A stretch of 64,000 bases of DNA from Eledone cirrhosa. Its lineage: Eukaryota. Shown one piece after another: positions 20,060 through 53,686 of this stretch. Below the pieces are notes generated by a model that had not been told where the DNA came from, did not search any database, and saw only the letters and a program-made list of their open reading frames with translations. Every line of letters begins with the position of its first letter. The stretch's first letter is position 1. The stretch spans positions 370,574,001 to 370,638,000 of the forward strand of contig OZ024743.1 in assembly GCA_964016885.1 (NCBI GenBank). The letters are read 5' to 3'. The translations under genes and the position numbers were made by a program.

Positions 20060-20492
20060 ATACGATATTAAACAAATGGAAACTATATTTATAAAACCAT
20101 ATTTATTTCATTATACATATTTCAGGGATACCATATTAAAAATATGGCATGCCTTCGTCAGATAAAATACAATATATAACCAGTTTTATAAATAATTTTG
20201 ACGTACCATAAATATAGCGACCATTAAACCTCCTACCTTAATGGTCGCTATATTTATGGTACGTCAAAATTATTTATAAAACTGGTTATATATTGTATTT
20301 TATCTGACGAAGGCATGCCATATTTGTAATATGGTATCCCTGAAATATGTATAATGAAATAAATATGGTTTTATAAATATAGTTTCCATTTGTTTAATAT
20401 CGTATATCTACTCCAAAAACTTGTCGAGTGCTTTATATCAGTTATAAAATATTTACTTGTTGTAACCCAACAATTTTAAATAAAACTTTTGC
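20060..20492. mobile_element. Foldback pLTR mini-element (family A) with a hammerhead in each arm
   Basis: Arms 20060-20227 and 20238-20407, 10-nt spacer, unpaired tail to 20492, (TA)n flanks. Confidence 0.9.
20297..20360 (+). ncRNA. Hammerhead motif (mirror copy 20105-20168, minus)
   Basis: attttat CTGACGA agg C atgccatatt-tgt-aatatggtat C cct GAAA tatgta TA atgaaat. Confidence 0.8.
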
Positions 20493-20773
20493 ATATATAT
20501 ATATATATATATATATATATATATATATATATATATCCTGGGTCCTGTATTTTCATTGCTCTAGTGATGCGGCTGGACTGCCGACCGCTATATCTGATTT
20601 GCTAAGCTGGATGAACGTATTGTTATTAGTCTGGGGTTCTTTTCCCCATCTGAGTGCTAAAGCTACAGACCGATTCTGCATTCGTTAGCTTGGCCGTGTT
20701 CTAAAGCTTCGATAATGCTGTACTCAAATTTATATATATATATATATACTCGTATATATATATATATATATAT

Positions 20774-20960
20774 ACGATGTTAAACAAATGGAAACTATAT
20801 TTATGTAACCATATTTATATAAATATATATATAAATATATATAAATATAGTTTCCATTTGTTTAATATCGTATATCTACTCCAAAAACTTGTCGAGTGCT
20901 TTATATCGGTTATAAAATATTTACTTGTTGTAACCCAACAATTTTAAATAAAACTTTTGC
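20774..20960. mobile_element. Shorter foldback copy of family A
   Basis: Same 3' tail as 20375-20492, preceded by an inverted aaacaaatggaaactatatttat arm. Confidence 0.8.
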
Positions 20961-20987
20961 ATATATATATATATATATATATATATA

Positions 20988-21284
20988 TAAATGTTCACTC
21001 TCCATGGCTGAATACAATAAATATAATCTGAGTTTTTCGAATATAAATAATAATATTCGATTCATTTGCAATTATGCAAGCAGCCTCTTTTTTAAAGCCA
21101 TGTCAGTAGAAAGAGCCACTCATTCTTGCTTTGATGTAAACAGAACTGCAGACACTAATGTGTCTAGAGCAAGAATGAGGGACTCATTCTACTGACATGG
21201 CTTTAAAAAAGAGGCTGTTTGCATAATTGCAAACGAATCGAATATTATTATTAATATTCGAAAAACTCAGATTACATTTATTAT
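20988..21284. repeat. Foldback insertion in (TA)n, no recognisable hammerhead
   Basis: Arms about 21016-21134 and 21163-21283. Confidence 0.8.
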
Positions 21285-22021
21285 ATATATATACACACAC
21301 ACACACATACATACATACATACATACATACATATATATATATATATATATATATATATATATATATATATATATATATATATATATATATACCTATCTAT
21401 ATATATACATTATATAAAATTAACAAAGATCGGTGGTATTAATTCAATGGTCTCCAGCCAGCGTCTAGCTCACTCTTTGTCAAATTGCAGCAATGCCGTT
21501 ACAATCAGCCATTCAAAGTGCACACATTTAGTTAATAGCAGATGCTGTGGCAGTGTTTGGGTAGAGAGAAAGGTGAAATTCTCATCCCTTGGACAATATT
21601 GTTTCTGTGCAACATATCTTCACAAATCCAGATATAGAACCTCAATGTTCAGAAAATCACGTAATATGTGCTGACATTTACGTAACCTGGCTGTTACACT
21701 CATCAGCAAGGATACCCAAGTCATACGATAGTTCCAAACAGTGTGTGTTAACCATTGCCACAGGATAAGGTATCCAGTAGTCCCAGATGATTTAGAAATT
21801 TATCACAGACTATAACACATGATTTGGCAGTTGAATTCAAACAAAGGAATTTGTGCCAAGTAAAGAACATGCATACATATAAACATAATAAGATTCATGC
21901 ATATATTTATATATGCAAGCAAATAATAGTTGATGATTGATACAAAATCGAACATTCAATATAAACAAGAAATATCGAAAATCCTAACCTTGTACAGGAG
22001 ATCCCAATCAGTGCTGTAAGG

Positions 22022-22320
22022 AGGGGTCGATAAAATAAAGTACCAGTAATGAACTGGGTAATTGCTGGCCTTGTGCCTAAAGTAGAAACAAATATATATA
22101 TACATAATATATATATATATATATATATATATATATATAATTGTTTCTACTTTAGGCACAAGGCCAGCAATTACCCAGTGCATTACTGGTACTTTATTTT
22201 ATCGACCTCGTAAGGATGAAAGGCTAAGTCAACCTCGGCGGGATTTGAACTCAGATAGTAAAGGGACGTAACTATGCTGGAAAGCATGGCGTCCGACTCT
22301 CTACCGATACTGCCAATGAC
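22022..22320. mobile_element. Two tRNA-SINE copies tail-to-tail around (TA)n
   Basis: Plus 3' part 22022-22091; minus full copy 22138-22320. Confidence 0.8.
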
Positions 22321-22452
22321 CGTTCAGTCTGTCGGGCGCCAATCGGCACCGCTGGTCACAGCACGTCGTGCTGTTTTAGCCATAAGATAACGCCATCCCA
22401 CTGGCTGGGCGGGCAGGCCGGTACTCATTTCTACAGCTGAGTAAACTGGAAA

Positions 22453-50212: not shown

Positions 50213-50267
50213 TATTGTATATATATATATATATATATATATATATATATATATATATATATATATA

Positions 50268-51337
50268 CAGTTATACCAATGCACAGTGGAATCAGACAAC
50301 CAGAAATGGTATTATATCGGAGCAACTGGGAATACATTTAAAGCCCGTTGGTATACACACCGTTACGCAATGAAACATTCCCAGCATCGTTATGTAACTA
50401 CTCTTGCAAACAAGACCTGGCAACTGAGGGAAAGTAACCATCAATACACCCTAAAGTGGAAAAAATTATCGAACGCGCCCCGATATCGGAGTGGTATGAG
50501 AAGCTGTCGATTATGTGACCTTGAGCTGTTCCACATTTTGAGTTCGAAGAATAAGTTACTGAACAATAAAATCGAAAGATCAATTTATTGTAAACATAGA
50601 CTCAAAGAAAAGTTTTCGCACTACAAGTGCAAATCGAACCCTTAACCTCTTACTACCAACTGACAAACTGCATATACTTAGACTTTATACCCTCTTATTG
50701 TATCTAACCCATTTAATTACCCACAAAAACCAATACCTATATCCCTCCCTTCTCCTTCATTCCTCTTCTATTTCTTTTCTTTTCTTCTTTCTCCCCCCCC
50801 CCCTTTACTTTTATTTTTATCATTATGATTTGTATCTTTATTTTTTATATATGCATATATATATATATATTTATCTCTTTATCTCTTCCCCCCTCTCCCT
50901 CTCTCCATCCCTCCCACTATGATCAATTTAATTCTCTTTAACTCACTACATTCACAGTCATGAAGTCTACATATCAAAACTCTACCACCTCTTCCACCTC
51001 TACCCCTCACTCCATCTCAGTTTGTCACTCTACTTCCTAACTCTTCTCCCCCTTCCTCTCTCTCTATACTATTCCGTCTGTCCCCTCACTATCTAATTCC
51101 TCTTCCTCTCTCTCTATACTAGTAAATACAATTCCCAAAAAATGTTTTTCTCTATATTAAGAACTATTTCAAGAGTAACTTACTCACTATTTTGAAAATG
51201 TGGACGTAAACAACAATTATCATTGAGTGGCTGCTGTTTGCAGTATAGCAATATAAGGTTGCACTTACCAATGAAACGGTCGTAAATACCTGGATAAAAT
51301 CCTTCTCTTAATGCTTACCTGTGTTTTCTCTTTTATA
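50268..51337 (+). mobile_element. 3' fragment of a Hydra-like PLE (GIY-YIG + 3' UTR)
   Basis: LYQCTV..YYIGATGNTFKARW..H, CRLC..E, CKH; (TA)n on both sides. Confidence 0.8.
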
Positions 51338-51834
51338 CTATATATATATATACACATATATATATATATACATATATATATATATATATATATATATATA
51401 TATATATATATGAACATATATATATATATATATATATATATATATATATATATATATATATATATATTAATATATATATATATATATATATATACATATA
51501 TATATATATATATATATATGTATACATATATATATATTAATATATATATATATATATATACATATATATATATATAAATATATATATACATATATATATA
51601 TATAAATATATATGTACATATATATATATATATATATATATATATATATATATATATATATATATATATATATATATATATATATATATATATATACATA
51701 TATATATATATATAAATATATATATATATATATATATATATATATATACATGTGGGAGGTGAGTTTTATTTTAGTATGTTGATTTAAAACTGCACTATTC
51801 ACAAGTGTGTTTTAACCTTCATATCATGTCTCCC

Positions 51835-51905
51835 TATTTTATCTGACGAAAACGCAAATGTTATTGCATGATGATATTTGTTTTTGAAATGCGCATAATA
51901 AAATA
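51835..51905 (+). ncRNA. Hammerhead motif (family H)
   Basis: tattttat CTGACGA aaa C gcaaatgttatt-gcat-gatgatatttgt T ttt GAAA tgcgca TA ataaaata. Confidence 0.8.
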
Positions 51906-52261
51906 CATGGAAATCTTTTAACCATCTTTTGATCTTATGAATTATTATATATATATATATACATATATATATATAAATATATATGTATATATATATATAT
52001 GTATATATACATATATATATATACATATATATATATATATATACATATATATACACATATATATATATACATATATATATATATATACATATATATATAT
52101 ATACATGTATATATATGTATAGGAACAAATATGACCCCGACGGCAGAGCTCAAGCCGTTTCGACGCCTATTTCCTATTACCCACTCTACTACCCTAAGTA
52201 TTGAGTACTTTGGTGCGTTATGGTCTATCTGGTTCCTTACCACAATTCCTTCGTTATATAC

Positions 52262-52500
52262 ACATGTCGTGCGCATGGAGGATGACCGCCGGGTAAAGAA
52301 GTGCCAAGAAATCCCAGTAGAAGGAAGACGCAGTAGCGGTAGACCACATAAACCATAGGCAGGGGTGGTGAGAGCAGACCTCAGATCGCTGAAACTCACC
52401 GAGGAGATGACGAAGGACCGTCACAAGTGGAGAGATGCTGTGCTGAATAGGACCATTGCAAGCAGGGAAAAGCGATCATAAAATGATGATGATGATGATA
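52262..52500 (+). mobile_element. RTE-clade LINE 3' tip with (GAT)n tail
   Basis: [23 protein letters not shown]. Confidence 0.75.
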
Positions 52501-53612
52501 TATATATACATATATACATATATATACATATATATATATATATGAGCGGAACAAGTAAACTTTAAACAATCTTTTAAATAAATTAAAATATGATATTTAA
52601 ATATTTACCTCTTCTAGTGCCATGACCGACGGTTTCGCTTATCAAAAGATTGGAATGGAAATATATATATATATATATATATATATATATATATATATAC
52701 ATATATATATATATTTATATATATGAATATATATATATATATATATATATATATATATATACATATATATATATATTTATATATATGAATATATATATGT
52801 GTATATATATATATATATATATTGGTAAACAGAATAGAAAATGCTGACAAATTGTTGACAGTTGAAAAATGGTTTAATTAGGGATAAAAGAGTATTAGTA
52901 ATTGTATGGGTTAGTATTCAGTTGTGGTTTTAAGTTTTTAAGTTTTTACCGGTTGCGCATTTCTAAATGCTTTTCAAAAATAATTTTGAGATAGAGTGTC
53001 CGTGCTGTTCGCTCTGATCCAAGAGAAAAATAATGTAAAGTTAAGGTTTGTATAATATATATACATATATATATATATATATGTACATATATATATATAT
53101 ATATATACATATATATATATATATATACACATATATATATATATATATATATATATATATGTGTATATATATATATATGTATATATATATATATGTACAT
53201 ATATATATATATATATGTATATATATTATTAAACCCTTCAATATACAAACCTTAACTTTACATTATTTTTCTCTTCGTTAATTTTCAAATTCTTTTAATT
53301 TATACATTATCTTTCAACGGTTTTCAACCTCTCTATGTAAAACAATATATTTTTCTCAGTTATAAAAGCTATCTCTCTCTCTCTATCACCCATCTCTCCT
53401 CCTATCTCATCCTTCCTCATTATACTCCTCCCTCTCCACTTTTTACTCTCATCTCCTCCTCTTTTTCATCCTTTCCAACCCCCAACCCCCATCCCCTCAA
53501 AATAAAATATATTTTTTTCCCAAATCACACATCAATCTAAAACTACTTTTCATATGTTGATTTAAAACTGCACTATCCACAAGTGTTTTTTAACCTTCAT
53601 ATCATGTCTTCC

Positions 53613-53686
53613 TGTTTTATCTGATGAAAACACAAATATTATTGCATGATGATGATATTTGTTTTTGAAATGCGCATAATAAAATA
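53613..53686 (+). ncRNA. Hammerhead motif (family H, second copy)
   Basis: tgttttat CTGATGA aaa C acaaatattatt..gatgatatttgt T ttt GAAA tgcgca TA ataaaata. Confidence 0.8.

Follow-up and report, generated by a model that had tools for sequence, protein, structure and literature searches.

Hammerhead motifs in the window

The 64-kb stretch of Eledone cirrhosa DNA analysed here (GenBank assembly GCA_964016885.1, contig OZ024743.1, positions 370,574,001 to 370,638,000 of the forward strand; 'the window', numbered from its first nucleotide) is repeat-rich, with many (TA)n tracts and LINE (long interspersed nuclear element) and Helitron fragments. It contains twelve type I hammerhead ribozyme motifs in eight insertions, which belong to four families with unalignable flanks. 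The word CTGANGA occurs 47 times, against 21 expected, and 12 of these occurrences are followed in turn by a long hairpin, by UGAAAU, by four nucleotides and by AUH. The hammerhead core (C3 U4 G5 A6 N7 G8 A9, G12 A13 A14 A15.1 and U16.1 H17) is present in every one of the 12. The full pattern matches 12 times in the window and not at all in 100 shuffles; it was derived from the motifs themselves, so this result excludes chance only. Eight of the stems had been listed in an earlier, sequence-only reading of this DNA, and all eight lie where it had placed them; to these are added four inverted partners on the minus strand (C3 at 20161, 34438, 40963 and 48696).

The fourth pair of stem II (10.4 opposite 11.4) does not form in any of the motifs. 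It is C.C in ten and C.U in two (collectively C.Y), and the earlier description of a fixed mismatch in stems of differing sequence is upheld by a selection that is blind to this position. When the core and stem II pairs 2, 3, 5, 6 and 7 were required and pair 4 was ignored, 15 motifs passed, and all 12 with U at 11.1 carry C.C (10) or C.U (2) at pair 4. The other three (19932, 31019 and 35827) are ordinary hammerheads with G10.1-C11.1 and paired stems.

The pairs around the mismatch covary, as had also been claimed. Among the 11 distinct sequences, five of the seven stem II pairs (2, 3, 5, 6 and 7) change on both sides, which leaves a single pair besides pair 4 that lacks compensatory change, and pair 4 is unpaired in all 11. 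Sliding the register of stem II leaves just 21–56% of it paired. Across stems I, II and III, 90% of 144 cells are paired and 9 of 16 pairs show two-sided change (9 sequences). The covariation shuffles disregard relatedness and are not probabilities. Counted over the seven distinct stems, mismatches occupy 1 of 42 places at pairs 2, 3, 5, 6, 7 and 8, and 7 of 7 at pair 4. Stem II contains four G-U and no A-C combinations, which suggests that the sense RNA is the folded strand.

Pair 1 is A-U in seven motifs, G-U in two and U.U in three. The placement of the mismatch 'after 3 bp' therefore holds where pair 1 forms, and fails in the three motifs with U.U, where only two pairs lie below it. If the two bases of pair 1 are instead taken for extra nucleotides, one on either side, the pair that follows (pair 2) is G-C in six motifs, A-U in five and G-U in one. 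Stem II with its loop spans 26, 30, 31, 36 or 39 nt. Stem I has eight pairs in families A and C and five in B, with no bulge at a constant distance. The stem III hexamer, correctly described earlier as palindromic or nearly so, is a perfect palindrome in eight motifs and a near-palindrome in four. An AUA triplet and AATAAA, at first attributed to all of the motifs, accompany 11 of the 12. The exception is copy 43617, which is without stem I: another repeat cuts it at 43569, between A16.2 and U16.1, and its apparent C17 is not its own. The start of the interrupting repeat recurs at 42925; a second end was looked for and not found. From its TC start we take this repeat to be Helitron-like.

A covariance model run over the window found no additional clear copy, the next match scoring 20.8 bits against 52–80 for the training copies and their partners. 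None of the Rfam hammerhead families, Hammerhead_1 included, matches the window at its gathering score, and none appears among the best 150 of 281 matches at E ≤ 10; the comparison with Rfam that the sequence-only reading had called for leaves the motifs unassigned. The motifs and the tails of their repeats are listed in Table 1.

Table 1. Hammerhead motifs with a stem II mismatch, and one-sided tails of the repeats that carry them (positions in the window)
Feature	Coordinates	Strand	Details
Family A, stem type A1	20296..20361	+	C3 20304; mismatch C20314.C20338; predicted cut after A20353; long end with tail ~20493
Inverted partner of 20304 (A1)	20104..20169	-	C3 20161; mismatch C20151.C20127; short end ~20063
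Family A, stem type A2	34094..34158	+	mismatch C34112.C34135
Family A (A1b), inverted partner of 34622	34381..34446	-	C3 34438; mismatch C34428.C34404; long end with tail ~34245
Family A (A1b)	34614..34679	+	mismatch C34632.C34656; G.A at pair 8; short end ~34720
Family A, stem type A3, inverted partner of 41106	40911..40971	-	C3 40963; U.U at pair 1; mismatch C40953.C40934; long end with tail ~40771
Family A (A3)	41098..41158	+	mismatch C41116.C41135; short end ~41200
Family D, hammerhead remnant	43568..43625	-	mismatch C43607.C43583; repeat interrupts at 43569; stem I lost
Family B, inverted partner of 48912	48644..48704	-	C3 48696; mismatch C48686.C48667; short end ~48598
Family B	48904..48964	+	mismatch C48922.C48941; long end with tail ~49109
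Family C	51835..51905	+	mismatch C51853.U51882; short end ~51945
Family C	53613..53686	+	mismatch C53631.U53663; short end ~53727
One-sided tail, family A	20403..20493	+	GTCGAGTGCT at 20423-20432; predicted terminal hairpin
Tail equivalent	~34245-34340	-	
Tail equivalent	~40771-40870	-	
Tail equivalent, family B	~49010-49109	+	

Constancy of the mismatch between and within families

Sorted by their flanks, the copies fall into family A with seven members (three stem types), families B and C with two each, and family D with one. The 12 copies are therefore not independent, there being four families, one of them with seven copies. Flank identity is 81–95% within family A and 39–55% between families; among 24 local flank alignments between families, compared with shuffles, one gave p 0.03 and one p 0.05. 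Changes were counted on a hand-set tree of the seven stems. The core positions, U11.1, U15.2, A16.2, U2.3 and C10.4 show no change on this tree. Position 11.4 shows one, from C to U, which retains a pyrimidine mismatch. The mean number of changes is 1.8 at paired and 2.8 at free positions, with four at N7 and two to four in the loop of stem III.

Variation within family A was assessed by piling up public sequencing runs on the copy at 20304 (3,876 contigs from X1, 51 from X5, 5 from X8 and 28,396 reads from X22). No alternative letter reaches 3% at 20314, at 20338 or in the catalytic core, while N7 varies strongly. Compensating changes are seen at 20312 (G to A) with 20340 (C to T), and at 20315 (A to G) with 20337 (T to C). 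Stem types A1 and A2, both with C10.4, also occur under a second species label (loose ends in X5), and a loose-end consensus (agreement 0.59–0.63) suggests that family A has a fourth stem, in which 11.4 is likewise C. The G10.1-C11.1 pair, which all such motifs were said to lack, is indeed missing from the 12 motifs of the window; C is found at 11.1 in ~10% of the X1 contig depth and in 22% of the X22 plus reads, so that this generalization may fail genome-wide.

Repeats carrying the motifs

Eight of the 12 motifs form four divergent inverted pairs, the arms of which are ~92–96% identical. All 11 intact copies end at (TA)n, which lies either 48–54 nt downstream of the cut nucleotide (64 nt in one copy with a degenerate tract) or 140–153 nt downstream of it. 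In four of four inverted pairs the long end, with its tail, is on one arm only. This two-end architecture fits the insertion pattern of Penelope-like elements (PLEs), in which inverted 5'-truncated copies carry a one-sided tail (PMC8557442, the parts available), and the two ends correspond to two start sites for reverse transcription in a PLE of Anolis (PMC11167929). The repeats are thus likely to be 5'-truncated PLEs. The repeats do not fit non-LTR retrozymes, which are head-to-tail repeats of ~150–400 bp with canonical hammerheads, as the copies are single or inverted; a scan of the window for tandem arrays found none that covers the motifs.

The insertions extend 48–153 nt past the cut site, which suggests that they were likely copied from uncleaved RNA. 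The copies of a pair lie on opposite strands, and transcription through both would yield an RNA in which the ribozyme is masked within a long hairpin. The copies in the genome are therefore probably relics without activity, and any selection would have acted on active master elements.

Several details of the repeats may be recorded here. Besides the occurrence in Table 1, GTCGAGTGCT is found in identical form in the tails of families A and B, whose remaining flanks cannot be aligned, at 20891-20900, 34310-34319, 40837-40846 and 49050-49059. It is followed by a pyrimidine run and then CAG, a possible splice acceptor, and an AC-rich hairpin lies near the long end. At 20767-20992 there is a pair of family A fragments in which the tail is kept and the hammerhead deleted. 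Stem I of family A is predicted to extend to a rod of ~25–30 bp by pairing of TTTATAAAAC with GTTTTATAAA (20255-20405, 34055-34200).

Comparison with published hammerheads

Hammerheads at the ends of PLEs, U11.1, U.U at the stem's base, palindromic hexamers and A17 are already in print. Apart from PMC11167929, the comparisons below apply to the available portions of each source. Cervera and De la Peña (2014; PMC4209133) described hammerheads in the pseudo-long terminal repeats (pLTRs) of metazoan PLEs. Like the present motifs these are of type I, with an intact CUGANGA/GAAA core, a long stem II and a tiny palindromic stem III, and they occur in dispersed truncated copies and in opposite-strand pairs 100–700 bp apart. 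Single rows come close in particular features: that of D. willistoni has U.U at pair 1, UAGCUA and AUA, and that of shrimp has A-U at pair 1 and A17. However, the published consensus has an extra nucleotide after A9, G10.1-C11.1 and a paired stem II (exceptions are published). Measured against the defining features of that study, the present motifs have the reduced palindromic stem III and loop 3 and lack the extra nucleotide and G10.1-C11.1. Inspected by eye, none of the 56 rows of its Fig. S3 has C.C at pair 4. Two single rows have other mismatches there (Clonorchis 2, U.U; S. purpuratus 1, C.A), and no claim of conservation was found in the portions available.

Hydra-clade PLE hammerheads (Craig et al. 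2021, PMC8557442) are similar in their (TA)n targets, inverted 5'-truncated copies and one-sided tails, and U.U stands at the base of stem II in 14 of the 34 rows of File S2 (by eye). They differ in a stem III of 3–4 pairs with a short loop and in a short, paired stem II; C.C at pair 4 is seen in none of the 34 rows (by eye). Tails are 30–40 bp in that study and ~90–100 nt here. Short-motif look-ups in the Naiad, Chlamys and Hydra consensus sequences of its supplement showed no instance of the motif, although line breaks may hide matches. By eye, the 3' end of the Naiad_Obim consensus has a GAAA box ~25 nt ahead of a CUGAUGA box. This may be a hammerhead in permuted order, in a clade from which canonical hammerheads are said to be absent.

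The Anolis Poseidon element PAc (Frangieh et al. 2024, PMC11167929) likewise has two insertion ends that define a tail, AT-rich targets and an uncleaved RNA template. In contrast, its open reading frame (ORF) begins in stem II, whereas the motifs here keep no frame, and its main text describes no mismatch in stem II. The dimer-cleaving PLE variants of Lünse, Weinberg and Breaker (2017, as cited in PMC6765202 and PMC10085705) share the short palindromic stem III and the association with PLEs, and that paper or its supplements may already contain the C.Y subtype. The axolotl retrozyme HHR_Amex2 (PMC7229834) is also of type I, its helix II starting with a U.U mismatch and its stem III having two pairs; unlike the present motifs it occurs in tandem repeats and has loop-loop contacts. 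For the giant squid, 235 Rfam hammerhead hits are given as a count only (PMC6962438).

The comparison with published PLE variants that had been proposed separates the fixed C.Y mismatch, which is seen in none of the 90 rows compared, from U11.1, the palindromic hexamer and A17, which are in print. Such companion traits are not specific to the C.Y subtype, since published PLE hammerheads have them and, within the window, the ordinary hammerhead at 19932 combines A17 and AATAAA with a hexamer that is palindromic. No report of a fixed C.Y at pair 4 of stem II was found in full-text searches, a scope that leaves out most subscription papers and figures, and no mention of it occurs in the portions available of PMC11300833, PMC544870, PMC10085705 and bioRxiv 10.64898/2026.07.22.740005.

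Beyond the octopus-like sequencing runs, searches of wider collections were blank. In viral contigs, the pattern with C.C gave 37 matches, none with stems, and for the pattern without C.C both stems are intact in none of 120 of ~520 matches. In metagenome contigs (11 of 64 parts), the structure is intact in none of 117 of ~760 matches; the covariance model gave 100 of these 117 loci at most 31 bits, against the 52–80 quoted above. Both collections hold little animal DNA, and these blanks weigh little. Thirteen of the metagenome contigs contain a repeat family with an ordinary minimal hammerhead, which has an extra U, a GGGC/GCCC stem II and a CAUG palindrome. Sequencing runs were also searched with a neighbouring PLE ORF, and no RNA run was among the matches listed.

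Other elements of the window

Other PLE-type ORFs of the window carry different hammerheads. The long ORF at 14578-17361 has a weak reverse transcriptase (RT) match and a C-terminal part that resembles a GIY-YIG endonuclease (by eye); its closest match is an Octopus vulgaris protein (66% identity). It lies within 10283-17910, where inverted, partly tandem copies of a PLE-type RT element are 99.7% identical, an insertion that, judged from this identity, is very recent. These copies carry another family of ordinary minimal hammerheads (10481, 14794 and 17652).

The ordinary hammerhead at 19932-19962 (+) has a U3-A8 core variant, G10.1-C11.1, the palindrome CGUACG, A17 and, 13 nt later, AATAAA. 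It lies behind an endonuclease-like ORF (18183-19676) and ends ~60 nt past the cut at (TA)n. Broken PLE-type ORF fragments akin to this ORF occur at 45780-47620 and 50271-50645 with no hammerhead directly behind them. At 33148-33195 (+) there is a further hammerhead, whose pair 1 is G-U and whose stem III (ACA-A-UGU) is longer; it resembles the Hydra-clade motifs in the published portions available. An AT-rich, degenerate 5S rRNA match at 61504-61624 (-) scores 40.8 bits, barely over the Rfam gathering score.

Interpretation of the mismatch

It is likely that the mismatch is kept by selection. As a tentative first choice, we regard the motifs as minimal type I hammerheads that lie at the 3' end of short repeats, likely truncated PLEs, with C.C or C.U as a selected recognition mark for the RT-endonuclease protein of the element. 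The element's own protein would bind the C.Y spot of stem II and so fold a weak ribozyme, and two RNA molecules would dimerize through the stem III palindrome. Stem III alone is too weak (+4.7 kcal/mol), and the self-duplex of the hexamer has -2.2 to -10.5 kcal/mol, UAUUUA excepted; a dimer model has been proposed for hammerheads with a palindromic stem III (PMC4209133, the parts available). The mismatch appears costly, as pairing position 4 would stabilize stem II by 4.8–6.7 kcal/mol, and recognition, as opposed to simple weakening, is suggested by the constancy of both its identity and its position. The ranking of a protein in first place has two grounds: the PLE hammerhead of Anolis cleaves only when the protein of the element is present (PMC11167929), and stem I has no bulge at a constant distance. 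A bolder version, which we hold with more doubt, would see here an undescribed class of PLE hammerheads, clade-wide in cephalopods, in which C.Y would be a switch required for cleavage and either read by protein or docked on helix I.

Several results weigh against a selected protein mark. No ORF adjoining the 12 motifs could be linked to families A–D, the copies being too short, and a 35-residue probe for such an ORF gave one match, which is spurious. In Anolis, insertion is independent of cleavage and tolerates 5' truncation to +20 (PMC11167929). The persistence test (at most one change over the two positions) is only moderate: P is 0.024 if the positions change as often as free sites do, and 0.13 if they change as often as paired sites. 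Within the family A pile-up, 6 of 14 stem positions are invariant at the 3% threshold, and the probability that both mismatch positions are among them is 0.16. Of the 17,537 plus reads in X22, 12,246 have their first base at 20314, which falls within a GCATGC site; this is the likely cut site of restriction-site-associated DNA (RAD) sequencing, so that C10.4 is pre-selected in that run. The pile-up alignment, at 80% or more, favours the reference, and its haplotypes are unphased. Finally, the tails of families A and B have GTCGAGTGCT and the predicted terminal hairpin in common, and families A, B and C have the same end spacing from the cut.

These shared features make one ancestor likely, and families A–D are most likely old branches of one clade, as opposed to convergent inventions. 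For a mismatch to have arisen four times independently at one position, the computed P is ~3e-5, which favours common ancestry and leaves retention by selection as the question. The selected structural subtype proposed in the sequence-only reading stands in so far as C10.4 has no change and 11.4 has one; the test behind it is moderate (P 0.02–0.13), and shared ancestry contributes to the constancy. The contact through the mismatch that was also proposed there, tertiary or with a protein, is plausible.

Ranked second, and rather doubtful, is a docking site between RNAs that would replace loop II, the mismatch contacting helix I (possibly U2.3) or the dimer partner. The mismatch is located where the canonical 4-bp helix II ends, meeting helix I (PMC4209133, the parts available), the long stem II (26–39 nt with its loop) displaces loop II, and U2.3 is unchanged in the seven stems. 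However, stem I offers neither a conserved bulge nor a loop at a constant distance, and PLE minimal hammerheads are described, in the available parts of PMC6155905, as usually without tertiary contacts.

It is unlikely, to our minds, that the mismatch is a neutral inheritance from one ancestral PLE that happens to be still unaltered in the sampled master elements. There are just four families, the tail motif and end spacing are shared, and the constancy reaches only P 0.13 against the paired-site rate, all as neutrality would have it. A free mismatch would nevertheless be expected to change faster than pairs do, as N7 and the stem III loop have done, and here a single change has accumulated over two positions while the flanks diverged to shuffle level.

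We consider it improbable that the mismatch serves merely to loosen the base of stem II, keeping the ribozyme mostly off and so preserving full-length RNA as template. Pairing position 4 in silico stabilizes stem II in each of the seven stems, and in A3, C and D it lifts the probability of pairs 2–3 from 0.13–0.28 to 0.58–1.0. The insertions likely stem from uncleaved RNA, as in PMC11167929. Any mismatch at this or a near position would do as well, yet identity and position are fixed, and pairs 1–3 are already formed at 0.93–0.98 in A1 and A2.

Coupling of self-cleavage to polyadenylation at the nearby AAUAAA, which had been suggested from the sequence, is very improbable and would be competition at most. 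In its favour, 11 of the 12 motifs have an AATAAA that begins 0, 5 or 6 nt from the nucleotide at the cut (background 1.2% of 12-nt windows). Against it, the signal lies within the 3' product (A and B) or is cut through (C), and in A and C most of it is complementary to the U-rich 5' strand of stem I. It likewise accompanies the ordinary hammerhead at 19932. The insertions have no terminal poly(A), A runs in their ends being 3–5 nt at the longest, and the mismatch is left unexplained. Two further candidates were rejected: a coding constraint on stem II, as the lengths of stem and loop break the frame, and a fold in which stem II's 5' strand would pair instead with GUGCU of the tail, which by eye fits family A and not B.

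Significance

PLE hammerheads are very abundant and cleave poorly alone (PMC4209133, the parts available; PMC11167929). A conserved unpaired site outside the core gives a single-nucleotide handle on protein-assisted versus RNA-only activation. Whole hammerhead families escape Rfam, as do the 12 motifs found here within 34 kb, and descriptors that demand a paired stem II likely miss such families too. If the mismatch is merely inherited, the motifs are one more PLE hammerhead family, of little weight. If the switch proposed above is real, C.Y would be the first defined activation element among the minimal hammerheads of animal retroelements, and descriptors with fully paired stems would overlook its class.

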